A DNA stretch of 64,000 nucleotides from the IMG/VR virus record IMGVR_UViG_3300028048_000047, positions 1 to 64,000 of that record; one strand, 5' to 3'. Position numbers and translations under genes: made by a program. Shown here in pieces: positions 23,537 to 40,679 of this stretch (position 1 is the first letter of the stretch; each line of letters opens with the position of its first letter). The DNA is from a virus (taxonomy: Duplodnaviria > Caudoviricetes). The notes beneath the pieces are model-generated. The model had not been told where the DNA came from and ran no database searches. It saw nothing but the letters and a program-made list of their open reading frames with translations.

Positions 23537-24835
23537 ATGTTAATTGATGAGTTACCTGGGGTATATTTTAAGGAAAAAGTTGCTTATGAATTAAGTGGAG
23601 AAGGTAGTAAAATACCTATTTTTATAGGTGCAAGTGGTAATACTGCATCCACAAATTCACAAAGTGGAGGTACTACTCAAAATGAGGCATCATCTTATGT
23701 TGTTGATGGTAGTACATATATCAAATTTAATAAATTAAGTGATGCTCTAAGACCTGTTGTTAAAAATGACACAACTAAATCTGATGGTACTGTTGTTAAA
23801 TGGCAAGAAGCAACTGGAATTGGTGAATATATTACTTATGATGCTAATGGAAATGCAACTTATCATGATGAAAACAAATTAGCGAAAAGAATCTACGAAT
23901 TTTACATGGAAAGTAAATTATTACAAAGTACAGATATTGGTGTACCTTATTTTTATGTAATTGATGTAGGTGCAGGCACTAATTTGAAAGCATGGGAAAC
24001 TGCATTGGAAACTGCTAAAACATTAACAGATGCAACAGTAGAATTTTATGTTGGAGCAGAAGGGATTACTGGGTGTACCTTAGAACAATTTTGTATAAAA
24101 GCAGTGGATAGTATTTTTGAAGATACAGAGGAATTAGATTTAAGGTATGGGTTTACTTACCTTAGTAAAACTTCAAGTGAAACATTAGCAGAATATGATG
24201 CAAGACTTATTACATTAGCAAATAATTTAAGAAGTCATTACAGTAGTACTCTTTATAAATTATCAAGATTTGGTCTTTGTGAAGAGTTATTAGTGGGTAA
24301 AACCATAGCAAGAATTTGTTGCACACCATATAATACTGAACCAGGGTTCTTCAAATATCGTAGTGTTACACCAAACACTTTTAATAAAAGGTTAAAAGAA
24401 GATATGAAAGACTTACAAGATGCAGGTATTATATTTAATCGTGATGAACAAGTGAATGGTAATAAATTACCTCGTATTAATTTATGTGTTTCATGTAGTT
24501 TTGGTTCAACAACTGACAGACCTGCTGATGCTTTATTCCATGCAAGGTTTAATGCAGATGATTTACTTCGTGAAGTCTTTGAAGTGTGTTATACTCAAAT
24601 TAAAGCAAATGAATCTGCTACAAACATAGCTTATCTTCAAACAATGATTAATAGAATTGTTAATAATCGTGTAGTTAATGAAGAAATGATTAAATACGAT
24701 GATAGAACTGAAATAGGTACTAAATTAACAGTTATAGAATCACATGAAGAACCTTATAATCTTATTGTAACTGGACAAATACAACCAGTAAAATGTACTA
24801 TTGCAATTAAGGTTGAAGCAGAAATAAAAATATAA
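23537..24835 (+). CDS. tail sheath protein
   Basis: N-terminal LPGVYFKE, IPIFIG, C-terminal V.G.IQPV...AI.V. Confidence 0.8.
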   Translation: MLIDELPGVYFKEKVAYELSGEGSKIPIFIGASGNTASTNSQSGGTTQNEASSYVVDGSTYIKFNKLSDALRPVVKNDTTKSDGTVVKWQEATGIGEYITYDANGNATYHDENKLAKRIYEFYMESKLLQSTDIGVPYFYVIDVGAGTNLKAWETALETAKTLTDATVEFYVGAEGITGCTLEQFCIKAVDSIFEDTEELDLRYGFTYLSKTSSETLAEYDARLITLANNLRSHYSSTLYKLSRFGLCEELLVGKTIARICCTPYNTEPGFFKYRSVTPNTFNKRLKEDMKDLQDAGIIFNRDEQVNGNKLPRINLCVSCSFGSTTDRPADALFHARFNADDLLREVFEVCYTQIKANESATNIAYLQTMINRIVNNRVVNEEMIKYDDRTEIGTKLTVIESHEEPYNLIVTGQIQPVKCTIAIKVEAEIKI

Positions 24836-24864: not shown

Positions 24865-25257
24865 ATGGTAAATGTAAAAAGATATAATCTTGCACAATTT
24901 GTATTTGATGGTGAACAAATTCCAGTAGGTAGTTTCAAAACCACAAGGAAACAAAGTACTGAAACATTAAATGCGTGTAATAGTCATAAACCATATGCAG
25001 TAATGTTCGGTAAAGAAGAATTAAGTTGGGAAGCAAGTGATATTGACCCAATTTACAGACCTTTCTTTGAAAAAGTAATGGATAATCAGAAAGCAGACCC
25101 TACTAATTTAGGTACTGTTGCTACATATGATTATAGTGAAATTACTTCCGATATATATGAAGATGATGCTTTTGGTGATGTATGGGTTGAAGAATTAAGT
25201 AAAGATACTGCTAACAAACCATTTTCGGCTAAGGGCAATGCTATGAGGATGGTATAA
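24865..25257 (+). CDS. tail tube protein
   Basis: 130 aa beta-rich protein directly after sheath. Confidence 0.7.
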   Translation: MVNVKRYNLAQFVFDGEQIPVGSFKTTRKQSTETLNACNSHKPYAVMFGKEELSWEASDIDPIYRPFFEKVMDNQKADPTNLGTVATYDYSEITSDIYEDDAFGDVWVEELSKDTANKPFSAKGNAMRMV

Positions 25258-26378: not shown

Positions 26379-26431
26379 TAAAAAAAATATAGTTTTAAAA
26401 AAAATAAGATTATACCTAAGATGTGATACTG

Positions 26432-29400
26432 ATGACCGAAGAAGTGATATTACAGTTCATGGGCGAAGATAAAATAAGTAATGTAGTTTCTACTATTGAA
26501 TCAAATACATTAGCATCAATACAATCAATACAACAAGCAGTATCACAATTAAATGAAAGTGTATCAAATATGGGTACAGTAGATGGGAGTATTATTTTTG
26601 AAGGTGGAGGCTATGAGGAAACTGCTTCTGACCTTGATGATGTAGATGATAGTGCAGATAATGCAAGTTCAAGTGTAAAGGCATTTTCAGATTCTACACA
26701 AAAAGCATCAAACAGTAGTGGACAATTAGGGAAATCTACTGAGGAAGTACATTCACAAGTAGAGATGATTACTAAATCTACTGATAAGTCTGCCGATTCC
26801 GTAAAAGACTTAGGGGATGCTAATAAAAATGCTGAAAAAGATGTATCCAGTTTTTCAAGTGCATTAGGTAAAAATACTGATTCAAAAAATCAAAATGCTT
26901 CTGCTTCAAATAATGCGAAAAATTCGCAAAGTACATTTAGAAACGAAACAACTGGGGCAAAAGAAGCGACTGACAATTTTTCAGCGGCACTTAAAGATGT
27001 TAATACTAATTTATCAACATTAAGTGCGGGTTCTGCAATGTATCTTGCAGGACAAATGAGTAGTCTTGGAACAAGAATGGAAGACTCTGCAAAAAATTTA
27101 AATAATTTAAGCATAGGTCTTGGACAAGTTGCTAAAATGTCTGGTATGGCAGAAGGTGAAATGACAGATATGATTACACATATCAGTAATGAAACTTTCC
27201 CAAATGATGAAGCAATAATGTATACAAAAAATTTAGTGCAGATGGGTGTTGAATCTAAAAATTTTGCAGAACAAGCAACAAATATGGATAGAATTAATGA
27301 TGCTTTTGGATTAGGTGCAGAAACAACAAATAGTTTAGTAACAGAATTATCTGTTCTTGGAGTAGATGCGAATAATATTGCATCTTCATTTAATGCACTT
27401 GCTTATGCTAATGAAAACACCAAAGGTGGTATGGAGAACTTTTATTCTTTCCTTCGTAAATATGACTCAGAATTACATCAATTAGGTTATAATACTGACC
27501 AAGCGGCGATTATTATTTCTGCTGCGACTCAAAAATTTGGTGGAGGTAGGGCAGCGTTAGCAGGGTTAAGTGAGGCTCTTAAAGAAGCAGGTAGTGATAC
27601 TGGTGCGTTAGAATCTGCTTTAAACTTAAAATCAGGAGCATTACAACACGCTTCACAAGAAACTGCAAGTTATGAAGGACAATTACAATCTCTTGCCGAT
27701 GAACAAATGGAACATAAAACCATTTTAGAAAGGATTACTGCATTTACTGATGATTTATTATTAAGGAATGCAGGACTTGTTACATTGGGTCAATCAATTA
27801 TGGGTGTTTTTGGTCAAGGAGCAAATATTGGTTTAACTGTCTTTGGTTTGAAAGAAATGGGTCTTGCTATTGCGAATTGGGGTCATGCAGGTAAAGTATT
27901 AGATAGTACTATTGATAGATTAAAATTACTTCGTACTTCTTCACAAGAGGCTTCTAAGGCTATTTCTACAACTACTGCTGTGAATCCGAAAGCTATGACT
28001 ACTGTAAATCCTAAAACAATGAATATACCTTCGACTGGTGTTGGTAAGAATACTGGTAAAGTGGCTTCTGAAACTAAACAAGTTGTTGAAGGGGCGGCTA
28101 AGACAGGAGCAATGGCAGGTCCTGCTAATACGGCAGGGGCAAGTATGAAGGCTACTGGTACTGGTTTAAAGTCTATTGGTAGTGGTGCTTTATCTATGGT
28201 TGCTCCTTTACTTCAAATTAGTGTTGCAGTTATGATTTTGTTACCTGTTTTGGCTTTAATTGCCGCAGAAGCACTTCTTTTACTTAAAGGATTACAGATA
28301 CTTGTTAAAGCATTGGCTTTTGATAAGATTGATTTAACTAAGTCTATTGAAGGTATTAAACAAGTTGGTAAGGCTTTATGGGAGATTGGTGTTGCTATTG
28401 GTGCTATGGCAGTTACTTCCATTATAACTATGATTTCTACTCCAATTATTGTTCTTGGACAGATTGTTGCTCCTATTAATCAAATAGGACAAATGTTAGT
28501 TGATGTTGCAAGGGAGTTACAGATTTTTAATAGTATTAATATTGATAAGTCCATTCCTACTAAAATCAAGTCACTTTCCGATACTTTGAAACTTGTTAGT
28601 GATGCAATGGGAAGTTTAGGTAATTTGTCTTGGAATATGGCTTGGGGTAATCTTATTGGTATGATAATTGGGAATGTTGGTGATGCCGTTAGGAACGCAA
28701 GTAGAGAAATCATTAATGCAAGTAATGAACTTGATAAGATTAAAGATGTTCCTGATTTAGATAAAGGTGCTGTTGATAAGTTAAAAAAAGTCGGTACTGC
28801 TTTGGAGAGTGTTGGAAAGGCTATGGATGGTCTTAGGAGCATTCGTGATAGTCAGAATTTTGATATAAGTGGATTTGTTGGTGGATTATTTGGTGGAGCA
28901 AATATTGAACAGGCATTGAATAATGTTAAAGATGATGTTTATAAGGCTTCTTCTGCTTTGAAAAATTTTGATGGTGTAGATACTATTCCTGATGGTGTTG
29001 GGAATAATTTAAAGAAAGTCGCTGATGCTTTGAAGAGTGTTGGGGACAGTATGGAAGTACTCCGTAAACTTCGTGATGATTATAATTGGGATATAGGTAT
29101 TGGTTCATTATTTGGTGATAGTGATGTTGTAGGTACTCTTGATAAAATTAAAGAAGATTTAGTTAAAGTTAGTGGTTCTTTAAAGAGTCTTGGTGAAGCT
29201 GGTGGTTTAGAGAAGATTGGTGATGATGTTCCTAAGAAGATTAAGAAAGTTACTGATACATTGGATTCTGTTCTTAAATCTATTGATAAAATGAATGAGT
29301 TCCAAGGTAAAGGTGAAGGGAAACAAGGTAATGATTTTAGTAATATTGTTACTACTATTGATAATGCTCGAAGTTCTTTAATTGAAGTTAGTAAATCTTT

Positions 29401-30805
29401 ATCTAAATTAGGAAGTGATGGTGGTGAAGGTAGTGGTTTGGCTACTATTGGTGGTGAAGTCAAATCAAAACTAAAAACTGTGACAAAAGTTTTAAGTACT
29501 TTGGCTACTGCTATTAATAATTTGAAGGGTTTTCCTACTGTTAGTGGTGATGAGATTCCTAATCGTGTTGATAAGGCAGTTACTGTTATTCAGAATTCTG
29601 CAAGACATATGAATAATCTTAATGGTAGTCATAAAGTTAGTGGGGCTATTATAAGTGTTATTAGTTCTGTTGGTAAAGCAGGGAGAAGACTTGCTTCTGC
29701 AACTAATGCTTTGAAGGGTTTTCCTACTGTTAGTGGTGATGAGATTCCTAATCGTGTTGATAAGGCAGTTACTGTTATTCAGAATTCTGCAAGACATATG
29801 AATAATCTTAAAGGAACACCAAAAGTTAGTGGTGGTATTGTAAGCGTTATTAATTCTGTTGGTAAAGCAGGTAGGAGATTAAGTAGCGTTACTAATTCTT
29901 TGAAGGGTTTTCCTGTTGTGAGTGGTAATGAAATTCCTAATCGTGTTAAAAAGGCAGTTACTGCTGTTAAAAATACTGCTAAACAGTTAAATAAGTTGAA
30001 AGGTACTTCTGTTAAAGGAGGTATTGGAGGTATTTTAAATTCTGTTGCTAATGCAGTTAAAAGATTAAGGACAACTTTATCAAAAATGAGTGGTGGTTTT
30101 AAAACTGATGGTCAAAATATAGGTACTAATTTGAAAACTGGTATTAAAACTGGTTTAAATGGATTAGGAGATACTGTTAGTACTGCTGTTAATGATGCAA
30201 GTGGTAAAGCGAATCCTACTGCTACTACTATGGGTACTAATCTTGGTAAGAGTGCAGTAAATGGTTTTAAATCAAGTTTTCTTTTAGGAGAGGTTATTGC
30301 CGCAGAGATGTCTAATGGTTTAAATGCTATTACTACTGCTACACCTGATATTACTAATGCTATGGGAGCATTAGCAGAACAAATGGTTCAAGAATTTAAA
30401 AATCGTTCTCAAATTAAATCTCCTGGTGCTATTGCAAGAGCAATTCGTGCAGAAATGGGTTATATGAAAGAATTTGTTGTTGTTCACGGTAAAGGTGTAG
30501 TGTCTTCTGTTGGTGGTCTTGCAGATAATATAGTTAATACTTTTAAACCAAATCTTCAATCACAATTAAATGCTCTTAATGTTAATAATCGTTCGTTAAA
30601 TAGGAATAGGTTAAATACTTTGAATAGTATGACTGATAGGAATTCAATGAATGAAAATAATCAAAGACCAGTTACTATTGTGTTTAATGAAGGTGCAGTA
30701 CAGTTAGATGCAAGGAACTTAACCACACAAGAATCAAGACAAGTGTTACTTAATGCTATTGAAGGTTTAGATGTTGTTGAAAGTGTAAATATTAAAGGAG
30801 CATAA
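26432..30805 (+). CDS. tape measure protein
   Basis: about 1460 aa helical Ala/Gly/Ser-rich, hydrophobic segment, IKSPG near C-terminus, synteny. Confidence 0.9.
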   Translation: MTEEVILQFMGEDKISNVVSTIESNTLASIQSIQQAVSQLNESVSNMGTVDGSIIFEGGGYEETASDLDDVDDSADNASSSVKAFSDSTQKASNSSGQLGKSTEEVHSQVEMITKSTDKSADSVKDLGDANKNAEKDVSSFSSALGKNTDSKNQNASASNNAKNSQSTFRNETTGAKEATDNFSAALKDVNTNLSTLSAGSAMYLAGQMSSLGTRMEDSAKNLNNLSIGLGQVAKMSGMAEGEMTDMITHISNETFPNDEAIMYTKNLVQMGVESKNFAEQATNMDRINDAFGLGAETTNSLVTELSVLGVDANNIASSFNALAYANENTKGGMENFYSFLRKYDSELHQLGYNTDQAAIIISAATQKFGGGRAALAGLSEALKEAGSDTGALESALNLKSGALQHASQETASYEGQLQSLADEQMEHKTILERITAFTDDLLLRNAGLVTLGQSIMGVFGQGANIGLTVFGLKEMGLAIANWGHAGKVLDSTIDRLKLLRTSSQEASKAISTTTAVNPKAMTTVNPKTMNIPSTGVGKNTGKVASETKQVVEGAAKTGAMAGPANTAGASMKATGTGLKSIGSGALSMVAPLLQISVAVMILLPVLALIAAEALLLLKGLQILVKALAFDKIDLTKSIEGIKQVGKALWEIGVAIGAMAVTSIITMISTPIIVLGQIVAPINQIGQMLVDVARELQIFNSINIDKSIPTKIKSLSDTLKLVSDAMGSLGNLSWNMAWGNLIGMIIGNVGDAVRNASREIINASNELDKIKDVPDLDKGAVDKLKKVGTALESVGKAMDGLRSIRDSQNFDISGFVGGLFGGANIEQALNNVKDDVYKASSALKNFDGVDTIPDGVGNNLKKVADALKSVGDSMEVLRKLRDDYNWDIGIGSLFGDSDVVGTLDKIKEDLVKVSGSLKSLGEAGGLEKIGDDVPKKIKKVTDTLDSVLKSIDKMNEFQGKGEGKQGNDFSNIVTTIDNARSSLIEVSKSLSKLGSDGGEGSGLATIGGEVKSKLKTVTKVLSTLATAINNLKGFPTVSGDEIPNRVDKAVTVIQNSARHMNNLNGSHKVSGAIISVISSVGKAGRRLASATNALKGFPTVSGDEIPNRVDKAVTVIQNSARHMNNLKGTPKVSGGIVSVINSVGKAGRRLSSVTNSLKGFPVVSGNEIPNRVKKAVTAVKNTAKQLNKLKGTSVKGGIGGILNSVANAVKRLRTTLSKMSGGFKTDGQNIGTNLKTGIKTGLNGLGDTVSTAVNDASGKANPTATTMGTNLGKSAVNGFKSSFLLGEVIAAEMSNGLNAITTATPDITNAMGALAEQMVQEFKNRSQIKSPGAIARAIRAEMGYMKEFVVVHGKGVVSSVGGLADNIVNTFKPNLQSQLNALNVNNRSLNRNRLNTLNSMTDRNSMNENNQRPVTIVFNEGAVQLDARNLTTQESRQVLLNAIEGLDVVESVNIKGA
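29522..29965 (+). repeat. 189-bp-period repeat (63 aa) in tape measure
   Basis: TTGAAGGGTTTTCCT... at 29522, 29711, 29900. Confidence 0.9.
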
Positions 30806-30810
30806 TTATT

Positions 30811-31377
30811 ATGGCTATGTATGGGAAAAATGTTAGTAAGGATAATTATAATGTTAGTCTTGATGGTTATGATATGATTATGGAAGAGGTAACTGTTAAT
30901 GAAGGGTTTAACAGAAGAGAAACTATAAGACATAATATTCTTGGTGGTACACAAAGTGTTATGAGGGGTAATTATTTACCTCGTGATTATTCTTTTATTA
31001 CTCATTTGTTGATTGACCCTGATTTTCCTGATGTTTATGATAGTGTTCTTCGTGAGTGGCAAAGTAAACCAGTTGAAGTTATTAGTAGATATATGGGTGG
31101 TAAGTTTAATGCAGAAGTTATTGTTAAAAAAACACCTACTATTTATCCTAATTATTTGAGTTTGGAAGTACAAGTGATTGAGATTCCGTCCAAAGAATCA
31201 TTAATACCAAATGAAGAGTATATTACTCCCAAAGGTTCTAAAACAGTTAAAACTATCACTAAAAAGAATAATAAAAATAAAGACAAAAGTAAAAGTAAAA
31301 CAGATACTAAAAAGAATACTACCAAACGAACAAAAGATGGTAAAACTAAGGGTAGTAATATTACACAAGTAAAATAG
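30811..31377 (+). CDS. tail tube initiator/baseplate-proximal protein
   Basis: directly after tape measure; Lys-rich tail. Confidence 0.55.
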   Translation: MAMYGKNVSKDNYNVSLDGYDMIMEEVTVNEGFNRRETIRHNILGGTQSVMRGNYLPRDYSFITHLLIDPDFPDVYDSVLREWQSKPVEVISRYMGGKFNAEVIVKKTPTIYPNYLSLEVQVIEIPSKESLIPNEEYITPKGSKTVKTITKKNNKNKDKSKSKTDTKKNTTKRTKDGKTKGSNITQVK

Positions 31378-31393
31378 GTTGGAGGCATGAATC

Positions 31394-32668
31394 ATGGCTG
31401 ATTGGGATACTACTCCTGGTAGAACTGGTAGAAGGACTATTGACCAAATCATGGATAAAACCAATAGTGGAAGTAGTAGCAGTAGTAGTGGGAGTGATAA
31501 TAGTAGTGATAGTTCTTCGTCATCTGATAGTGATTCTACAAAGAAAACAAAAGTTAAACCTGACCTTCGTAAAACTTATAAGGAAGTACCAATACCAGTT
31601 CCTAAGAAAAGATATGGTATGCCAAGTAGGTATAGTGTTAGTAGAGCAGGAGTAGAATTATATGAAACTGATGAGGATAATTATGAACCATATGTTCCAA
31701 CTGGGAGTGCAGGTGGAGGTACAACAACTGTTGAAGATGAAAGTGTAGATAGTGATGATGAAGATAACACACCAGGATTTAGTTTACATATGGGTGAAGT
31801 CTTAAAAATTCACTATGAAGATGAACTGAATAGTATTAGTTTTGAAAGTGATTATAAGGACATGAATAATAATGCCAGTATTAGATTAGATGATATAAAT
31901 CTTAAAAAAGCATACAAAGGGGTAAGGCTTAAATTATTATCTGAATGGGATTCAATAGATAAAATTAAATTCCAATGGGAAGATTTAAAAGAAGCAATAG
32001 AAGGTTTCATTACAGAACAAAAATTCACAGATACCGAAGTTGAAGTGACAGTAAGTGGAATGACAAAAACATTGGAAATGAAATATAAATTTGATTTCAA
32101 ACAAATGTATCGGTCTGAAATAATAAATCAAGTTATATTAACTGCTGGATTAAAACCAGTATTAAATTTTGAAGGTTTAGAAGATGATATAATTGATTTC
32201 AAAAATTATTCTGAATCAGATAGCAGTAGTGGAAGTACTGGTGATGTTAAAATTAAGTCAACAGGTAGTAAAGTTTTAGATGAAGTTGTTAAAAAAGCAA
32301 TTGCAGGAAAAACAGATGATTTAGAAAAAGCAAAAGCAATATTTGAAGCATTTAAAGAACATTGTTATTATGAAGGTTATTCAGATTGTCAGTATCCTAA
32401 TGATATTGAGAAAGCATGGAATGATGCACATATAAATTGTGCTGATGGAGCGAATGTTTTATGTGCAATGTATCTTGCCGCAGGTTTAAATTCCGTTATT
32501 GTCCATGTTAATAATCATTATATTGTTAAAACTGAAATTAATGGTAAAAGTTATCTTTCAGACAGTTCAGGGGCAGAAGGAGCGCATAATACAAGACCAT
32601 TTGGGGAGGTATTCACCTATGATGGTGTTACAAGTGGTTCTGTTGTGGGTACACATTTAGATTATTAA
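31394..32668 (+). CDS. baseplate hub N-terminal part fused to transglutaminase-like (papain-fold) domain
   Basis: EGFIT...VTVSGMTKTLE...RSEIINQV..TAGL; INCADGANVL...HY...LSDSS (Cys-His-Asp). Confidence 0.65.
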   Translation: MADWDTTPGRTGRRTIDQIMDKTNSGSSSSSSGSDNSSDSSSSSDSDSTKKTKVKPDLRKTYKEVPIPVPKKRYGMPSRYSVSRAGVELYETDEDNYEPYVPTGSAGGGTTTVEDESVDSDDEDNTPGFSLHMGEVLKIHYEDELNSISFESDYKDMNNNASIRLDDINLKKAYKGVRLKLLSEWDSIDKIKFQWEDLKEAIEGFITEQKFTDTEVEVTVSGMTKTLEMKYKFDFKQMYRSEIINQVILTAGLKPVLNFEGLEDDIIDFKNYSESDSSSGSTGDVKIKSTGSKVLDEVVKKAIAGKTDDLEKAKAIFEAFKEHCYYEGYSDCQYPNDIEKAWNDAHINCADGANVLCAMYLAAGLNSVIVHVNNHYIVKTEINGKSYLSDSSGAEGAHNTRPFGEVFTYDGVTSGSVVGTHLDY

Positions 32669-32697
32669 ATTTATTTAAAAAATGAGGTTTTGATAAA

Positions 32698-33423
32698 ATG
32701 GGTGATTCCAAAAAGATTAATGCAACGAAAGGAAGATTAATGAATGGTTTTGATAAGATTACTCATAGTGCTATTCAAAATACTGTTCCTAAACAAATAG
32801 AAGAGGCAATAAGTAAGGTTAGTATGAGAACTGGTGTTATAACAAAGTTTTATCCTTATCTTGATAAAGCAGAAGTACAATTTGATTCCACTAAAAAGAA
32901 AGTACTTTGTAAAATTTTACATAGGTTTTGTGGAGATTTGATTGATTTTTACACACCTCTTGCAGATAAAAAAGGGTTTAATAAGAAGTTACAAGAACCT
33001 TATGTTGTTCCAAAATTTAGACAAACGGTTTGTGTTTTGAATATTCATGATTCTGATAGTCAAGAACATTTAATTTTGGGTTATTATAATAATAAAGATA
33101 TAGTTAATTTTAATCCTGCTAAACCTGGTAATCTTAAAATTATGAGTGTTTATGATGATGGTAATGAGTGTTGGCTTAAATTTGGTAAAGATGGGTTCAA
33201 TTATAGAGTAACAAAAACTCCTAATCGTTATGTTGGAGATAAACATGAAGATGATGGTGTTAAAGAGTTTGACTATCCGATGTCTACTGATGTGTATACT
33301 AAGAGTGAAGTTGATAAGTTAATTAATGAAAAAGAGATTTATACCAAAGAGGAAGTGGACACACTTTTACAAAGTTATGATGATAGAATAAAAAAATTGG
33401 AAGATATTATTAAAGATGGATAA
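32698..33423 (+). CDS. baseplate spike-like protein (OB fold)
   Basis: RTGVITKFYPYLDKAEVQF, LILGY; YTK.EVD repeats. Confidence 0.6.
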   Translation: MGDSKKINATKGRLMNGFDKITHSAIQNTVPKQIEEAISKVSMRTGVITKFYPYLDKAEVQFDSTKKKVLCKILHRFCGDLIDFYTPLADKKGFNKKLQEPYVVPKFRQTVCVLNIHDSDSQEHLILGYYNNKDIVNFNPAKPGNLKIMSVYDDGNECWLKFGKDGFNYRVTKTPNRYVGDKHEDDGVKEFDYPMSTDVYTKSEVDKLINEKEIYTKEEVDTLLQSYDDRIKKLEDIIKDG

Positions 33424-33479
33424 AAAAAAGAATTTTTATGAATTGATTATTTTTTTATGGTTTAAGGTTGGTTTTGTTT

Positions 33480-34898
33480 ATGAGTCATGTTGTTCTTGGT
33501 TGTGATATAAATGATGGTAATGATTCTGAATGGCAGAATACTGTTGCAAGTGCATTAGAAAAAAATGGACATAAAGTTGAAAAACTACCGATACATCCTA
33601 CACCATTTGGACAATATTCATATGGTGAAGCAGGGTACAATCCAAAGGGTAAAATTGGGGTGTATATTATGGCAGACAGTTTAGTGTCTGTTGCAGACCT
33701 TGCTTATGGGGGTACTGGATTTAAATATGCTTACTTTATTATAAGAATGGATTTGGGTAGACCTAAAATGAGTCAACCTGAACACTTTAAAACAAGTCCT
33801 ATTGGTATGGACGGTGATTGTACTGGGATTTGTGAGAAATTAGTGGGTAAAACATATTCCCAAATGAATGACTTGACAAAAAGTAAATGTCAATGTACAT
33901 GGGGTAGAAATCCAAAAGAGGGTGCAAATAATCTCATTAAATTAATGGGAGGTAAAACTGATGATGATAATCTTAGTAAAAAAGTTAGTCAAGGAGGAAC
34001 TATTAAAGATGCCTTACAGAAACTTTTAACTCATTGGGATGGGCAAGTTGAGTGTTATATTCGTGGGGACGAAGTTCATGTGAATAAAATCCGTACACCT
34101 GAGAAGTATTATAGTTGTATTCTTCAAGAGGGTTATAATATTTTTGTTGAATCCGTTACTGTTACCGATGTTAATCCTAATACTCCAAATTATTTAGAGG
34201 TGGTCTGGACTGGTGGGGTTATCACTATTAAAGATGATAGTTTAATTAAACGATTTGGTGTTGTCCGTGTTAATGTTGTGGCTGCAAAAACCACAGATGA
34301 GAAAACTACTGGTGCAGGAGGAGATGATTGGGATACTACCCCTGGTAGAACTGGTAGAAGAACGATTGACCAGATTATGGATACAAGTAGTACAGACAGT
34401 ACATCTAATGAAGGAAGCAGTAGTGATGATTCCGATTCAAGTTCTGATTCAAGTTCAAGTTCGGATTCCAAAAAGAAAAAAGATGATGATGAGAATATTG
34501 TAATTGTTGATGTTATTGATAATTATGATGACGCCTATTCTTATGCTCAAATGTACTGGACTAAGTTACAGAGAGAAAATGGTAGAACATTAGAGTGTCA
34601 AGTATGGGGTTCTTGTAATTACAATAGTGGTGAGTGGGCTAAGGTATATTTACCAAGTTTTGATATTAATGGATTTATGTATATCACTAATATGTCACAA
34701 TCAAATGATGGTGGCGATTGGACTTGTACTTTGACTTTAATGGATTTTCCACCTGGTTGGGGTAAAGAAGAAAAAGAAGAAAAAGAAGAAGATGAGAAAG
34801 AAGATAAAGAAGATGATGATTCAGAGGATATTTCTTCAAGTGGCGATGATTCTGATTCAAGTACTAATTCAAGTTCAAGTTCTTCATCAACAAGTTAA
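33480..34898 (+). CDS. uncharacterised N-domain plus baseplate hub C-terminal part
   Basis: TIKDALQKLL...CYIRGDEVHV, LIKRFG, MYITNMSQS...WTCTLTL. Confidence 0.6.
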   Translation: MSHVVLGCDINDGNDSEWQNTVASALEKNGHKVEKLPIHPTPFGQYSYGEAGYNPKGKIGVYIMADSLVSVADLAYGGTGFKYAYFIIRMDLGRPKMSQPEHFKTSPIGMDGDCTGICEKLVGKTYSQMNDLTKSKCQCTWGRNPKEGANNLIKLMGGKTDDDNLSKKVSQGGTIKDALQKLLTHWDGQVECYIRGDEVHVNKIRTPEKYYSCILQEGYNIFVESVTVTDVNPNTPNYLEVVWTGGVITIKDDSLIKRFGVVRVNVVAAKTTDEKTTGAGGDDWDTTPGRTGRRTIDQIMDTSSTDSTSNEGSSSDDSDSSSDSSSSSDSKKKKDDDENIVIVDVIDNYDDAYSYAQMYWTKLQRENGRTLECQVWGSCNYNSGEWAKVYLPSFDINGFMYITNMSQSNDGGDWTCTLTLMDFPPGWGKEEKEEKEEDEKEDKEDDDSEDISSSGDDSDSSTNSSSSSSSTS

Positions 34899-34930: not shown

Positions 34931-35194
34931 TTGTTTTCAATGTTTGATTTGGTTGTTTGGAGTGAGGAAGATTCAAATAATGATGTTGAATCTTTGTTTG
35001 ATGTTTTTGTTAAGTATTATGCACTTAAAGAACTTAAAATATTTTTTAAAAATAATACCGATATTTTAATTGAGAAATATAATGTTATTGGTAAAGAAAT
35101 GGATAGTGTTATTTTTAATGTTTATGAAGATGCTTCTGTTGATGTGAAGTTAGGTTCATTTGATTTTAATATGGTTAAATCTGTGTATGTTTAA
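34931..35194 (+). CDS. hypothetical protein
   Basis: ORF track. Confidence 0.45.
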   Translation: MFSMFDLVVWSEEDSNNDVESLFDVFVKYYALKELKIFFKNNTDILIEKYNVIGKEMDSVIFNVYEDASVDVKLGSFDFNMVKSVYV

Positions 35195-35229
35195 TTGAAT
35201 ATTTTTTTTATAAAGGAGTTGAGTTGGTT

Positions 35230-35709
35230 ATGGTGTTACCAGTTGATACTGAGAGTTATGCTTATTTGTTTTATAAGAATTTGAATGAAGATGTTAAATT
35301 AAAGTCTGATGCTATGGGTAGATGGGATATTGATTTTGATTTTGAGCATGATGATTGGTATAATGTTACTGGTTTTGAGAGTGTATTTAATGCTTGTGTA
35401 ATTGCTATAATGACTCGTTTTGATGAATTAGAGTTTATGGATTTGTATGATGATTTCGGTTGTCGGATTCATGAATTGATTAAAGCAAATAAAAGTAGGA
35501 ATGTTAAGTATCATATGGAGTTATTTGTTACGGAAGTATTGGAGAATATGAGAAGAATAAAAAGAGTTAATTGGGTTAATATTACGGATAATCCTAATGG
35601 TAAATTATATAGTTATGTGATTACTTTTAATGTTTCTTGTATGTTGGATGAAGATTATGAGTTAGAGGATGTGGATACTACAATTATTGAGGAGAGTTTC
35701 TTAATATGA
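35230..35709 (+). CDS. baseplate wedge/sheath initiator (gp25/W/gp46-like)
   Basis: AIMTRFDEL, DFGCRIHELI, E.L..M.RI..V. Confidence 0.75.
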   Translation: MVLPVDTESYAYLFYKNLNEDVKLKSDAMGRWDIDFDFEHDDWYNVTGFESVFNACVIAIMTRFDELEFMDLYDDFGCRIHELIKANKSRNVKYHMELFVTEVLENMRRIKRVNWVNITDNPNGKLYSYVITFNVSCMLDEDYELEDVDTTIIEESFLI

Positions 35710-37049
35710 GTTATATTTATGATGAAGAGGGTAATAAGAAGTATTATCAAGTAAATTATATTCAGAAGTATTATGAAGAATTGTTTTATGGGTTATTGGA
35801 AGAGGCTTATGATGTTAGTCTTATTAGTCATAATGAAAATTTCATTGATTATGTTAAATCAAGACAAGATATTAGTAGTTTTTATGTTATGACTTTGTCA
35901 ATTCTTGCTGATGAGATTGAAGATGTTTATTTTGATATAACTGATGTATATTACTCTGATAAAATCCAATATGCTATTGGGTCTGATTTAGATGATATTG
36001 GTTTGAGGGTTGGTTGTTTAAGACCTCGTGCTACTAAGGCAGGTGTTACTTTATCATTTAAGTTAAGTGTTCCTTTTGATGTTCCTATTGAGATTAATAC
36101 TCCTATTACTGTTTCTAATGGTAAGGGTGTTGAGTATGTTACTACTGGGACTTTGAGGTTTCCTATTGGGGAAACAGTATCTGAGGTTTTTGCTTTGTCA
36201 AGTAAAACTGGTAGAGGTTTTCGTGTTGAGGCAGATACTTTGCATATTATTGAAGAGGAAGTTGTTCTTGAAGATGGTACTATTATAGGTTTGTCAGTTA
36301 CAAATCCTAAGTCAAGTAGTGGGGGTAATGAAAAGTATAATGATGAGGAATATCGTGAATTATTACTTGATTGGGTTAAGAATAATATTAAAGGTAGTAA
36401 GGAGGCTTATGAAAGATATTTTGCTAATTTAGATGGTGTTGATTCATATAAACTCATACCTAATTGGAATGGGGTTACTGGTACTGTTAAGGTGGTTGTT
36501 GACCCTGGTGATTCTGAGCAATTGAATAATATTTATGATGATTTGAATGGTGTGGTTACTCAGTTTTCAGAAGATATAACTTTGTTCCCTCCTACTTTTG
36601 TACCGATTGATATATATGCTGTGTGTGATGTTGATATAGATGTGATTAATCCTTACAGTAGCTCTGAGAAAGAGGCGATTAAAAGTAGGATTAAGGAAGC
36701 AATTATTAAATATATTGAAGGGGATTTGTATTCTGAGAATAGGAAAGAACATCTTGGTTTAACAATTGGTGAAGATTTCATACCATATAAACTGGGTGTA
36801 TACTTATCACAAAAAATCCCTGAACTAAAAAACATTGGATTCAAATATCCTTTAAATCCAATCACAATAACTGATGAAGAAATGTGTACAAAAAATGAAA
36901 TAACAATTGAAATGAATTCTGTACCAACTTATAAAGAAATAGATTTAGATTCTGATGGTAATGCGGATATACTTGGTGTGGATTTGAATAATGATTCAAT
37001 GGCAGACCTTTATAGGAATAAGAATAATGTATCTCATGGCTTAAAATGA
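35706..37049 (+). CDS. baseplate J-like protein
   Basis: AIGSDLDDIG..VG..R..AT.A, VTNP...SGG.E...DEE.R, GTVKVVV. Confidence 0.9.
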   Translation: MSYIYDEEGNKKYYQVNYIQKYYEELFYGLLEEAYDVSLISHNENFIDYVKSRQDISSFYVMTLSILADEIEDVYFDITDVYYSDKIQYAIGSDLDDIGLRVGCLRPRATKAGVTLSFKLSVPFDVPIEINTPITVSNGKGVEYVTTGTLRFPIGETVSEVFALSSKTGRGFRVEADTLHIIEEEVVLEDGTIIGLSVTNPKSSSGGNEKYNDEEYRELLLDWVKNNIKGSKEAYERYFANLDGVDSYKLIPNWNGVTGTVKVVVDPGDSEQLNNIYDDLNGVVTQFSEDITLFPPTFVPIDIYAVCDVDIDVINPYSSSEKEAIKSRIKEAIIKYIEGDLYSENRKEHLGLTIGEDFIPYKLGVYLSQKIPELKNIGFKYPLNPITITDEEMCTKNEITIEMNSVPTYKEIDLDSDGNADILGVDLNNDSMADLYRNKNNVSHGLK

Positions 37050-37073: not shown

Positions 37074-40000
37074 ATGGTTAAACACAGTTTATGGAAAATG
37101 CTTGATAAATATCCTTACTTTATGGATAAAAGAAGGATAAGTAATTTATATAAAGTTACTAAGGTAAATAATAGTGTATTTCGTGATTTATATAATAGTA
37201 TATTTCACACTTATCAAAGTTTCCATTTAGATAAAAGATTATTAACATGGAAAACACAAGACAAGCCTTATTCTTACCAAATTCATTTTTGTTGTGGTTA
37301 CCCAAATATAAAAACTGTTAAAATATATAAGAATGATATTCTCATTCATCAAGATGATTTCACAGAAGAAGAAGCAACAAAAAGAACAGAGGAAAATCAA
37401 ACATATTGTTGGGAGTATGATTGTAGTTATGTTAAAACAAATATGTTACCTATAAAAGTGTATAGATGTACTAATTGTGACACTATATACTTTGGTGATG
37501 AATTACCTTATGATTGTGTTGGAGATGGATGTAATAGTAATTCATATATAACCACAAATATTTATGAATGTGATGAATGTGGAGAGATTTATTTTGATAA
37601 CCCTGACAGTAATGGAAATGTAAATATTGATTGTAAAAATGAATGTAATTCCACTTTCACAAGACTTTATGCTTATAGATGTATGGGTTATAATGAAAGT
37701 GTTGTGGAAATTGATGAAGAAGAAATTGAAGGAATGGGTTCTAATGGAATACATCATGATTGTGGTGAACTGTATCTTGGTACTGAACCACCAGAAGTAT
37801 GTACTGTTTGTGGAGCAAGTGGTGTAAGTGAAGATACAAGTGTTTATTATAATGATGATACATTAATGATAATTGATAATAGTATGGATTTTCCTTCAAT
37901 TAAAGAAGTTGAAATGGATTCTGATATTGAAATAAATCATATTGATGATAGTGTCTTAGTTAATACTGGTAAAAAATTATTTGTACAAGTTAAAGATACA
38001 GCAGATAATTATTTGGAAGATGTTACTGTTAAATTGTATAGTAATTATGTTGAAAATGCAACAAAAGTTACGGATAGTTCAGGGTTAGTTAAGTTTGATA
38101 TTGACATTACAAAAAAATATAATAAAATAGATGTGTTTAAAAATGGTTTTGTGAACTTTCAAGGTGAACCAAACCCATCATATACTATTAATTTAGATTA
38201 CATTAATGATAATTATATTATTACAATTACTTTAATTAAAGCAAATGTTTATAATAAATTGAATACTTATGAAGATGAAGGAGAGGAATATAGTCTTCGT
38301 GTAACAAATTGGGAGGAAGGAAGAGAAAGTAATGAATCATTTAGAATTCCATTACCAGTTATTCCTGATGATAAATTTTTGTTTTATGTTGAAACTTGGG
38401 ACGAATATTGGATTACAAAAGGTTTCCCTGAGAATGATGAATATTTGAATGATTATTATGACCATGATTATAGTCTTGATGAAATTGGTGCTTTGAATAA
38501 TATTCCTCGTAAAAAATATGTTAATGTTAATGATAATAATTTATATCCTTTAACAGAACCTCCTTATAATAAAGAATTAACCGAAGATGATTATCATTAT
38601 ATGAAACGGATGATTGAATATAATATTCGTTTATGGATAGCATTACTTAAAATAGATAATAGTAATGGGGATTATGATAATTATCTTGATTTGTTAAGTA
38701 AAGTTGGTATAACTGAGGAGGATTATAATTTTTATAAAAATAATACTCGTTCTTTCCGTGAGAAATATAATCCTGTGACATTAGAATTATGGAAAAATTA
38801 TAGTATTCCTTCAAGATTAATTAATCGTGAAAGATATTTACTTAAATTGTTTGATTTAAGGGTACATAATAGTAAATATGTTCCTTATAAAGTGGATAGT
38901 GATGGGAAGCCTATTAAGAAATATCAAAAATGGGAGTTGGATAGTGATGGTAATCCTTTAAATGATAGTGTAGGTACTTATATTTATAAGGATAAATGGG
39001 ATGTTGTAACAGACCTTTCAGAATGTTGGATACCTGAAAAATGGGAACATAAAGACAAATTCTGTGATGGGAGTATGTTATACAAGACATATTTATTTGT
39101 AGAGCCTGAAACATTAAGACCATTACCTTATGAAAATGTATATTGTAAGTTTAAATTACTGAATAGTCTTGCAGAGGAAGTTGAAGAAGATTATTATGTA
39201 GTTTTACAAGTATATTATGATGATAAATCTGAAATTGAGTATGTTGATGGTGAAAAAATAAGTGATGGTTGGTGTAATTTATCCTATAAAATGTTAAGTA
39301 ATTCTAAACCAACAACTGTTGTGTTTAATGCTTATTATAGTTATGAGGATTATTTGGAAAATGGGGTTGAACCGTTTTCAAGTGTGGAGATTGTGTTTAA
39401 TCCTCGTAATTCATGTAATGCTGATTTCTATGTGGATAGTGGAAATACAAGTGGAAAAGAAGATGGTAGTAAAGAATATCCGTTTAAAACATTACAACAA
39501 GCATTAGATAAAGTTAATCCTAATTTTGATTTAATTTGTTTAAAATCTAATTTAACAATTGAAGAACCATTATTTGTACCTAACAAATGTAGAATTTTGG
39601 GTGTTCGTGAAAGAAATTCTGATACGGAGTGTGATTTGGAAAAAGGTGTTGTTAATGTTCCAGTTATAACAAATACTACAAGTAAAAAGTTTTTCAGTTT
39701 AATTGGTAGTAAAAATTGTTCATTAAAATTAATTGATTTAAGATTAAAGTATAAATTGATAAATTCATATATTGGTTTAGGAACATGGGAAAATCATAAT
39801 AAAAACCTTGATGATTATGAATATGTCATTATCAATGGTGGACTTGTTAAAATAAATGTTAGTCTAAATAAAGATGAGTACTATCCTACGGATATTATTA
39901 AAGTAAGAATAACTTTAACTGATAAAAATAATAATCATGTTACAAATCAAAAAGTGAAACTTGTATTGGAAAATGGAGAACCTATAATATTGGAAGATAC

Positions 40001-40679
40001 TGATGGTGATGGTATTTTTGAACATACTTTGAGAATTAATGGTACTGAAAGGAAGATAGTTAATTTAATGACATCATTAATCTCAGATATTTACTTTGAG
40101 TCAAGTGTTTTAACAAAAATTAACTGTACAAAAGAACCTAAAACATATGTATCTGGTGGAGAAGATGTAAATATTAATATAGAAACAGATTCAAGTAATA
40201 CTCCTATAAAAGTATATGTTGATGGGGAGTATGTTGAAGAAATATTCACAGACAATGGAGGTAAAATTAATTATATTTATACTCCTTTGGATTGGGGTAT
40301 ACATATATTATTATTTATTAAAAATGATGATGATGTTATTGAAATGGTTGTTGTTGAAACAAAAACAACAATAACAAAATTAATCGGTACAACATTCATT
40401 AAAAACTTTGATATTAATATTAATGGTGATATAACTTATGATAAATTAACGGTAACAGAAAATATGAAATTAGAAGATTTGGATGAAGTATTAATTAATT
40501 TAAGATTGGACGGTAACATTGTTAAAAGTGAGTTATTTAATGTCAATCCTTCAAGAAAAGACTCAACAGAAATTATTGCATCTGACTGTTTGATTTTGAA
40601 GAATGCAGTAACTAATTTCACTTATGAAAATAATACCAATATTAAATACACTATTTTAGGTGAGTTTTGGAGAGATTAA
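37074..40679 (+). CDS. large baseplate/tail protein with Cys-rich ribbons, DUF1565-like motif and Ig-like domains
   Basis: SLDEIGAL..IPR, DDY.Y..R; several CxxC; FYVD...DGSKEYPFKTLQQALD. Confidence 0.7.
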   Translation: MVKHSLWKMLDKYPYFMDKRRISNLYKVTKVNNSVFRDLYNSIFHTYQSFHLDKRLLTWKTQDKPYSYQIHFCCGYPNIKTVKIYKNDILIHQDDFTEEEATKRTEENQTYCWEYDCSYVKTNMLPIKVYRCTNCDTIYFGDELPYDCVGDGCNSNSYITTNIYECDECGEIYFDNPDSNGNVNIDCKNECNSTFTRLYAYRCMGYNESVVEIDEEEIEGMGSNGIHHDCGELYLGTEPPEVCTVCGASGVSEDTSVYYNDDTLMIIDNSMDFPSIKEVEMDSDIEINHIDDSVLVNTGKKLFVQVKDTADNYLEDVTVKLYSNYVENATKVTDSSGLVKFDIDITKKYNKIDVFKNGFVNFQGEPNPSYTINLDYINDNYIITITLIKANVYNKLNTYEDEGEEYSLRVTNWEEGRESNESFRIPLPVIPDDKFLFYVETWDEYWITKGFPENDEYLNDYYDHDYSLDEIGALNNIPRKKYVNVNDNNLYPLTEPPYNKELTEDDYHYMKRMIEYNIRLWIALLKIDNSNGDYDNYLDLLSKVGITEEDYNFYKNNTRSFREKYNPVTLELWKNYSIPSRLINRERYLLKLFDLRVHNSKYVPYKVDSDGKPIKKYQKWELDSDGNPLNDSVGTYIYKDKWDVVTDLSECWIPEKWEHKDKFCDGSMLYKTYLFVEPETLRPLPYENVYCKFKLLNSLAEEVEEDYYVVLQVYYDDKSEIEYVDGEKISDGWCNLSYKMLSNSKPTTVVFNAYYSYEDYLENGVEPFSSVEIVFNPRNSCNADFYVDSGNTSGKEDGSKEYPFKTLQQALDKVNPNFDLICLKSNLTIEEPLFVPNKCRILGVRERNSDTECDLEKGVVNVPVITNTTSKKFFSLIGSKNCSLKLIDLRLKYKLINSYIGLGTWENHNKNLDDYEYVIINGGLVKINVSLNKDEYYPTDIIKVRITLTDKNNNHVTNQKVKLVLENGEPIILEDTDGDGIFEHTLRINGTERKIVNLMTSLISDIYFESSVLTKINCTKEPKTYVSGGEDVNINIETDSSNTPIKVYVDGEYVEEIFTDNGGKINYIYTPLDWGIHILLFIKNDDDVIEMVVVETKTTITKLIGTTFIKNFDININGDITYDKLTVTENMKLEDLDEVLINLRLDGNIVKSELFNVNPSRKDSTEIIASDCLILKNAVTNFTYENNTNIKYTILGEFWRD

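Follow-up and report, generated by a model that had tools for sequence, protein, structure and literature searches.

Introduction

Several virus systems use a common sequence to bring different proteins to one place in the particle. Shared anchoring modules are well known on outer phage fibres, where N-terminal modules of the T7 gp17 N-domain type, and those of CBA120 and G7C, plug different virion proteins into the same kind of site and are exchanged by recombination. In T4, a capsid targeting sequence of ~10 residues at the N-terminus of several internal proteins directs them to one assembly site. Among viral wall-degrading enzymes, PeiW and PeiP are lysis enzymes with N-terminal pseudomurein-binding repeats. 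Here we analyze a 19-residue peptide, hereafter the tag, that occurs once in each of two baseplate proteins of a tailed virus (Duplodnaviria; Caudoviricetes). Both genes lie in a 64,000-nucleotide stretch of DNA (the window) that covers positions 1 to 64,000 of IMG/VR record IMGVR_UViG_3300028048_000047. A first-pass annotation, made from the sequence alone, had proposed that the tag is a selected linear motif carried on flexible tethers by the two baseplate proteins. Our analysis upholds this proposal in its main lines, and shows in addition that much of the likeness of the copies is owed to gene conversion and not to selection alone.

Results

Two baseplate proteins carry an identical 19-residue tag

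The same 19-residue peptide had been reported at two sites in the window, and both copies of the tag (DWDTTPGRTGRRTIDQIMD) lie at exactly those positions (copies A and B, Table 1), in open reading frames (ORFs) that we refer to by their first nucleotide, ORF 31394 and ORF 33480. As also first described, the copies differ at five bases, all of them synonymous third-position changes (ACT/ACC, AGG/AGA, ACT/ACG, CAA/CAG and ATC/ATT), and each copy is followed by a Ser/Asp-rich stretch and then by a Lys patch (KKTKVKPDLRK after copy A, KKKK after copy B). A six-frame scan of the whole 195,936-bp contig, with up to 8 mismatches allowed, did not find a third copy of the tag.

Protein searches returned ~120 hub homologues and ~50 homologues of the ORF 31394 product (the lysin protein, see below), all in ENA, Logan or NCBI assemblies. 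From these we fetched five related loci of metagenomic viruses with the tag (L001, L005, L006, L007 and L008), so that both copies were in hand in six genomes including the window, with exactly two tag copies per genome module. The residues R, I, Q and I are invariant in 12 of 12 copies, and W, T, G and M are nearly so. Identity across genomes is 60-91% for the tag and ~52-60% for the whole proteins, and the linkers do not align.

The flexible tether that had been proposed was borne out by AlphaFold models of both proteins, in which the tag and linker have predicted local distance difference test (pLDDT) values below 50. Copy A scores 39-46 in the ORF 31394 model, and residues 276-297 and 301-312, in the region of copy B, are below 50 in the ORF 33480 model. 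At most one helical turn is predicted, over I-D-Q-I (DSSP assigns a helix to residues 16-20 of the ORF 31394 model), and the tag as a whole combines a Trp, three Arg and this short amphipathic turn. Neither monomer model packs the tag on its own protein, an observation that is uninformative for oligomers. The tag stands ~58-62 residues from the first fold in the lysin protein and ~43-45 residues from it in the last hub piece (window, L001 and L005 in each case). The tag therefore has the properties of a linear motif, in that it lies in predicted disorder and is better conserved than its flanks.

Four known motifs were considered and rejected: a twin-arginine translocation (Tat) signal, as no hydrophobic region follows the Arg-Arg pair; an AT-hook, as the R-G-R-P core is absent and not conserved; a PCNA-interacting protein (PIP) box, as the aromatic residues are lacking; and LysM, as the peptide is not long enough and runs on into low-complexity sequence.

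Purifying selection and short-patch gene conversion act on the tag copies

Using the Nei-Gojobori method, we found that the two window copies differ at a proportion of synonymous sites (pS) of 0.44 and a proportion of nonsynonymous sites (pN) of 0 over the 17-codon core from W to M, and at pS 0.42 and pN 0 over all 19 codons. When five random substitutions were placed on 57 nucleotides, with the transition bias set at values from 1 to 4, an all-synonymous outcome arose in only 0.02-0.07% of trials. A near-identical pattern was observed for the L007 copies over the 17-codon core, which was chosen after seeing the data (pS 0.49, pN 0.04, with a single non-silent change in the last codon of the core). 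Between genomes, the pN of the tag is 0.05-0.29. Because divergence within the window and L007 is wholly or almost wholly synonymous, the comparison of copies shows purifying selection, at the protein level, on the peptide in both genes, and the earlier claim of selection on the tag holds.

Selection is accompanied by a second process. In L001, L005 and L008, the two copies within a genome differ at 0 of 54 nucleotides, as against 4-20 of 54 for copies taken from different genomes. Each stretch of identity opens a few bases upstream of the Trp codon and closes 58-70 nucleotides downstream of it, giving tracts of ~65-75 nucleotides with sharp edges and unrelated flanks. Variants are also paired within genomes: K11 in L001, SWGSPAG in L005, ISQ in L008 and SHTGRRRIEQ in L007 are each present in both copies. 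Together, the within-genome identity, the sharp tract edges and the paired variants form the pattern of concerted evolution, and by this pattern the copies are shown to be kept matched by short-patch gene conversion. The copies of L006 differ in length (21 and 19 residues) and in their middle portion, and both keep [WY]-D-x-T-P and R-R-T-I-x-Q-I-M.

The tagged proteins are two parts of a predicted gp44-type baseplate hub

By predicted fold, the tagged proteins together make up a Mu gp44-type baseplate hub that is divided around the gene in the spike position. In VIA-align comparisons of the AlphaFold models, residues 81-274 of ORF 31394 match the N-half of gp44-type hubs with Z scores of 7.5-9.7, including residues 3-146 of Mu gp44 (1wru, Z 7.7) and 6-148 of a Neisseria hub (3d37, Z 9.7), as well as residues 0-150 of MuSo2 and 1-151 of the pyocin R2 hub. 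Residues 172-426 of ORF 33480 match the C-half with Z scores of 9.0-10.0 (MuSo2 150-344, Z 10.0; Mu gp44 146-337, Z 9.0; pyocin R2 hub 150-324, Z 9.3), and a Foldseek comparison of this protein with the MuSo2 43-kDa hub (3cdd) gave E=3e-6 and a probability of 1.0 (169 residues aligned by VIA, root mean square deviation 5.8). These Z values are middling, yet both proteins match the same targets and between them account for complementary halves. Their genes also lie where a hub is expected, between the tape measure gene and the gp25-like and Baseplate_J genes. The hub is not a single polypeptide, as its N-half is on ORF 31394 and its C-half on ORF 33480, with a gene between them.

Each half bears an accessory domain, a Pei-type lysin on the N-half and a CheY-like domain on the C-half. 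The ORF 33480 product is thus laid out as a CheY/flavodoxin-like domain (residues 1-168), the first part of the hub C-half (172-275), a junction reading TTGAGGD, the tag, its tether, the last hub domain (339-426) and an acidic/Ser tail. In profile searches, ORF 33480 did not reach the threshold of PF24032 (YqbQ-like; 20.4 bits against a cut-off of 27, over the last 65 profile positions only), and the hubC pieces of relatives (see below) scored 19-21 bits. A protein atlas search with the hub N-terminal domain gave sub-threshold leads only.

The CheY/flavodoxin-like domain is a confident prediction (pLDDT >90) with VIA Z scores of ~9-10 to receiver and cobalamin-binding domains, and it had no Pfam match. 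It is kept in nearly all hub homologues, tagged or untagged.

The first tagged protein carries a predicted Pei-type peptidase domain

The C-terminal domain of ORF 31394 (residues 288-424) is a predicted Pei-type cysteine peptidase domain with C349, H375 and D390 in the same Cys-His-Asp catalytic register as PeiW and PeiP. Its AlphaFold model aligns with PeiW at Z 11.6 and with PeiP at Z 11.1 (VIA-align), and a profile of the lysin family matches PeiW (8jx4) at E=1.8e-5, an alignment that includes the NC.D and GHY motifs. Across 46 sequences, C349 does not vary. The match of ORF 31394 to PF01841 (Transglut_core; 29 bits, cut-off 23) is the sole Pfam threshold passed by the hub and lysin proteins; for the same ORF, PF12386 (Peptidase_C71) gave 15.2 bits against a cut-off of 22, and phrog_37889 gave E=0.0017. 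Because of this Pei-type lysin, the locus points to a host with a pseudomurein wall, that is, a methanogen, and two of the homologues are source-labelled Methanobrevibacter sp.

In relatives, the last or unsplit hub piece often has an extra C-terminal Cys-peptidase-like domain with the motifs GDC[WH]ALSDY ... HRQV (Table 1), which would place two wall-peptidase-like domains on the tail tip of these viruses. ORF 33480 of the window lacks this domain and ends in the acidic/Ser tail.

The tag is confined to one clade and is N-terminal in relatives

The tag is found at residues 3-8 of the closest lysin orthologues. On the hub side, copy B was described as internal; this holds for the window, but in five relatives the corresponding tag lies at the N-terminal start of a separate gene, at residue 6 of proteins of 167-284 residues that match only the last third of ORF 33480. 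The gene order of L001 and L005-L008 is that of the window, with the hub C-half in two adjacent genes, hubN (289-310 residues) and hubC, and the hubC product opens with M-A-x-x-D followed by the tag. Between the two, relatives have the end of hubN, a stop codon, a spacer of ~12-35 nucleotides and a start codon. At the window junction there is neither a stop codon nor an ATG, GTG or TTG in frame, and the last hub piece can therefore be made only as a fusion. In a tree of the lysin protein, built without its first 60 residues, the tagged genomes form one clade (support 83/82) and the window is nested among split-hub genomes. On the basis of this nesting, the fused state is probably secondary, and the internal position of the tag in the window is probably the result of an in-frame fusion. 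This conclusion is weakened by mosaicism of the module, as the nearest hubN (75% identity) is found in a locus (L012) that otherwise differs.

The conservation in orthologues that the first-pass annotation expected was found within this one monophyletic clade but not in more distant orthologues. Gene order is unchanged in three more distant relatives (L009-L011), whose hub C-half is unsplit and has a Thr/Ser/Asp/Glu linker in the corresponding position; the lysin N-terminus of these genomes is only Lys-rich, and all three lack the tag. Given this absence, the tag is a clade-specific addition and not a general baseplate requirement. No genome examined has the tag on just one of the two proteins. 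In L012 the hub is split as well; in place of the tag, its last piece has at its start a hydrophobic, possibly membrane-active segment rich in Gly and Ala, and a Ser-rich linker follows. The spike-position gene of L012 follows the hub genes, and the transglutaminase-type domain of the L012 lysin protein is of another kind.

Profile searches of 5.8 billion and 1.8 billion proteins returned the tag in these two protein families only. A degenerate DNA pattern for the tag had zero matches in viral contigs, genome contigs and Joint Genome Institute (JGI) metagenome contigs, and a search of viral contigs for related loci found nothing. Two sets of candidates were discarded. Seven profile matches (P0173-P0179) are not the tag, as they are multi-stretch low-complexity matches to 9-14 of 25 profile positions. 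An apparent third tagged family (P0169, 289 residues, on an ENA contig of 11574 bp) pairs residues 1-171 of a lysin orthologue (99% identity to P0126) with a pseudouridine-synthase fragment, and is most likely a chimeric assembly.

Gene neighbourhood of the tagged proteins

The genes run in the order tape measure, 188-residue protein, ORF 31394, 241-residue protein, ORF 33480, 87-residue protein, gp25-like, Baseplate_J and a 1201-residue fibre-like protein (Table 1). The tape measure has highly conserved final ~45 residues in a C-terminal alignment, and its ORF also contains three tandem copies of a 63-residue unit (GFP-x-VSG-x-EIPNRV...). The 188-residue protein had no Pfam or PHROG match, and in relatives the 3' end of its gene overlaps the start of the lysin gene. 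Its tail ends in a KG-x-NIT motif, in which K180, G181, N183, I184 and T185 are invariant in nine genomes, which gives the module another tethered short motif besides the tag. The 241-residue protein had no significant family match and, by position only, is probably the central spike; the same slot holds proteins of 861-1020 residues with PF23844/PF23845 in L007 and L011.

Downstream, family matches were found to PF04865 (E=2.6e-14), phrog_6 (E=7.7e-34) and phrog_120 (E=3e-4). The presumed sheath and tube proteins had no Pfam or PHROG match, and a contractile tail is proposed because of the Baseplate_J and gp25-like genes alone. Several rubredoxin-like Cys-x-x-Cys knuckles (PF21349, 26.3 bits, cut-off 26.5) and Ig-like domains (PF02369) occur in the 1201-residue protein, which is probably a metal-stabilised fibre or adhesin.

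Table 1. Features of the tagged baseplate module. Positions are those of the window unless a related locus is named.
Feature	Position	Strand	Description
Presumed sheath	23537-24835		432 residues
Presumed tube	24865-25257		130 residues
Tape measure protein	26423-30805	+	1460 residues; PF10145 PhageMin_Tail E=5e-6, under the Pfam cut-off; same family flagged in relatives
Tandem repeat in tape measure ORF	29528-30090		units start at 29528, 29717 and 29906
188-residue protein	30811-31377	+	conserved, after tape measure; fold unknown; Lys-rich disordered tail ending KG-x-NIT
KG-x-NIT motif	31348-31365		in 188-residue protein
Hub piece 1 (ORF 31394)	31394-32668	+	424 residues; tag, tether, hub N-half, Pei-type Cys peptidase domain
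Tag copy A	31400-31456	+	residues 3-21 of ORF 31394
Tether of copy A	31457-31573	+	28-residue Ser/Asp-rich linker 31457-31540, Lys patch 31541-31573; pLDDT <50 up to residue 50
Hub N-half	31634-32215		residues 81-274 of ORF 31394
Pei-type peptidase domain	32255-32665		residues 288-424 of ORF 31394
241-residue protein	32698-33423	+	between hub pieces; spike-position gene, by synteny
Hub pieces 2+3, fused (ORF 33480)	33480-34898	+	472 residues; CheY-like domain, hub C-half, tag, tether, last hub domain
CheY/flavodoxin-like domain	33480-33983		first 168 residues of ORF 33480
Fusion junction	34305-34325	+	sequence compared with L001 and with gene tables of relatives
Tag copy B	34326-34382	+	residues 283-301 of ORF 33480; identical 19 residues
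Tether of copy B	34383-34481	+	29-residue Ser/Asp-rich linker 34383-34469, KKKK 34470-34481; pLDDT <50 up to residue 338
Downstream baseplate genes	34931-37049	+	87-residue protein; gp25-like wedge/sheath-initiator candidate 35224-35709; Baseplate_J 35706-37049
1201-residue protein	37074-40679		after Baseplate_J
Extra Cys-peptidase-like domain	L001 8001-8840; L005 9104-9943; L008 9041-9862		proteins P0002, P0021, P0035, P0039, P0097, P0108-P0113
Last hub piece of L012	5977-6609 (L012)		hydrophobic Gly/Ala-rich opening, then Ser-rich linker

Discussion

We favour, with some reserve, the reading that the tag is a docking or assembly tag for the hub pieces. The tag sits at the far end of a predicted disordered tether of 45-60 residues on both the lysin-bearing N-half and the last hub domain, and would fasten the two pieces to one common site at the tail tip, or to each other. 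A fragmented hub and the lysin that it carries would thereby be recruited in matched numbers. Complex prediction, in which residues 1-62 of the lysin protein were set against the 188-residue protein, the last 130 residues of the tape measure and the gp25-like protein, gave a score of 0.01 against a mark of 0.32, a result that speaks neither for nor against binding.

Several observations weigh against an assembly role. No binding partner came to light, and in none of the structural models is the tag set against another structure. The divergence of the two L006 copies indicates that strict identity is not obligatory. The distant relatives with the same gene order lack the tag, so the basic baseplate is built without it. 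The hydrophobic segment of L012 suggests that the head of the tether may act on the host envelope after ejection, and not in assembly. In addition, the samples are small, with diverged copies in only two of the six genomes for which both copies are in hand. A bolder form of the docking reading, which we consider rather unlikely, is that the tag is a self-matching handle: the tags of the N-half and of the last piece would bind each other, or equivalent sites in a ring, and so re-form the cut hub, and the need for the two to match would drive the repeated short-patch gene conversion.

Other roles for the peptide deserve to be weighed against docking. The tag might be directed at the host, being stored in the tail lumen or hub, expelled on contraction and put to work on a host protein or the host envelope, where it might, for instance, tie the lysin and the opened hub to the wall or membrane; in this it would resemble the N-terminal loading signals of contractile injection system cargo. 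One tagged protein is indeed a wall peptidase of the PeiW/PeiP type that must reach pseudomurein, the Trp, the three Arg and the amphipathic turn of the tag would suit such a role, the Gly/Ala-rich segment of L012 occupies the same end of the same kind of Ser-rich tether, and payloads of the Photorhabdus virulence cassette (PVC) load into the tube by disordered N-terminal signals (PMC11495950). Even so, we regard a host-directed role as unlikely, as the second tagged protein is a structural hub domain and not cargo, the internal tag of the window indicates that a free N-terminus is not needed, and no result places the tether in the lumen. An enzyme might instead recognise the tag as a site of processing or modification. 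A protease acting at the Arg-Arg pair would re-create the split hub from the window fusion, but at an N-terminal tag the same cleavage would remove only ~15-20 residues for no obvious purpose. Alternatively, a transglutaminase-fold domain could link the invariant Gln to the nearby Lys patches by isopeptide bonds; this would fit the invariance of R, I, Q and I in all 12 copies, the Lys patches that follow the linkers and the transglutaminase-fold Cys-His-Asp domain that the same protein bears, as does the last hub piece of some relatives. In the hubC pieces of relatives, however, the Lys patch is weak, the closest solved relatives of the enzyme domain are pseudomurein peptidases, and the tag is not docked into the active site in either model, and we therefore judge processing or modification to be improbable.

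Two further explanations were weighed. The tag could be functional on the lysin protein only, with the hubC copy a passenger, derived from the 5' end of the lysin gene by copying into the low-complexity linker of the hub and thereafter refreshed by conversion. Conversion tracts are evident, the tag is in both genes or neither across the genomes examined, and runs of low-complexity Ser codons on both sides offer homology for recombination. The drift seen in the window and L007 (pS ~0.45, pN 0-0.04), however, needs selection on both copies or, implausibly, that all changes fell in the selected copy, and the window hubC copy is more diverged from other genomes (7-9 nucleotides as against 4) and yet differs from the window lysin copy only silently. 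We accordingly give a passenger origin little credence. What is conserved might also be the DNA or RNA of the repeat, which could serve, for instance, as a recombination site or as a translation-initiation region matched between the two genes to equalise their output, and in three genomes base-identical copies do stand at the very start of both genes. That the copies within the window and within L007 differ at third codon positions with the peptide kept largely refutes a nucleotide-level element; moreover, the upstream ribosome-binding regions are unrelated and copy B of the window lies 846 nucleotides inside its ORF with no start codon nearby, and we find this explanation very hard to credit.

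The locus offers a handle on the assembly of fragmented hubs in archaeal tailed viruses, whose baseplates are almost unstudied, and on the means by which viruses of gut and rumen methanogens hold a virion-borne pseudomurein peptidase at the tail tip. It is also a case in which gene conversion can be separated from selection in a very short repeat. Should the tag prove portable as a docking peptide, proteins could be loaded onto such tails by its means; if it is self-matching, nature would have its own equivalent of engineered split-protein complementation tags, and hub genes would have a way of being fragmented and reshuffled. We know of no described precedent for a 19-residue tethered tag on inner hub pieces that is matched by gene conversion, a point that our literature searches did not address.

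Compared with known gp44/gpD/gp27 hubs (1wru, 3cdd, 6u5h and 9ki1), the window hub is alike in the fold of both halves and in its place between the tape measure and the Baseplate_J wedge genes. The solved gp44-type hubs are single chains of ~320-380 residues, whereas the window hub is spread over two genes that flank the spike-position gene (three genes in relatives) and its pieces carry extra domains, the Pei lysin and the CheY-like domain, together with the two tethered tags. The C-terminal domain of ORF 31394 resembles PeiW and PeiP (Peptidase C71; 8jx4 and 8z4f) in its fold and in its Cys and His motifs. Unlike them, the window Pei domain is fused to a hub half and, given this fusion, is presumably virion-borne.

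For the tag itself, the PVC loading signals of Photorhabdus (PMC11495950) are similar in being short, disordered and N-terminal signals common to different proteins of a contractile tail-like machine; they mark cargo and need the Pvc15 ATPase, whereas the window tag is on a structural hub domain and is also tolerated internally. The T4 targeting sequences function in the prohead, where the prohead protease cleaves them; there is no evidence of cleavage or of a head location for the window tag. The anchors of fibres and tailspikes (T7 gp17, CBA120 and G7C) are folded, span tens to hundreds of residues and belong to outer receptor-binding proteins, whereas the window tag is a disordered peptide of 19 residues, set on a long tether and carried by inner pieces of the hub.

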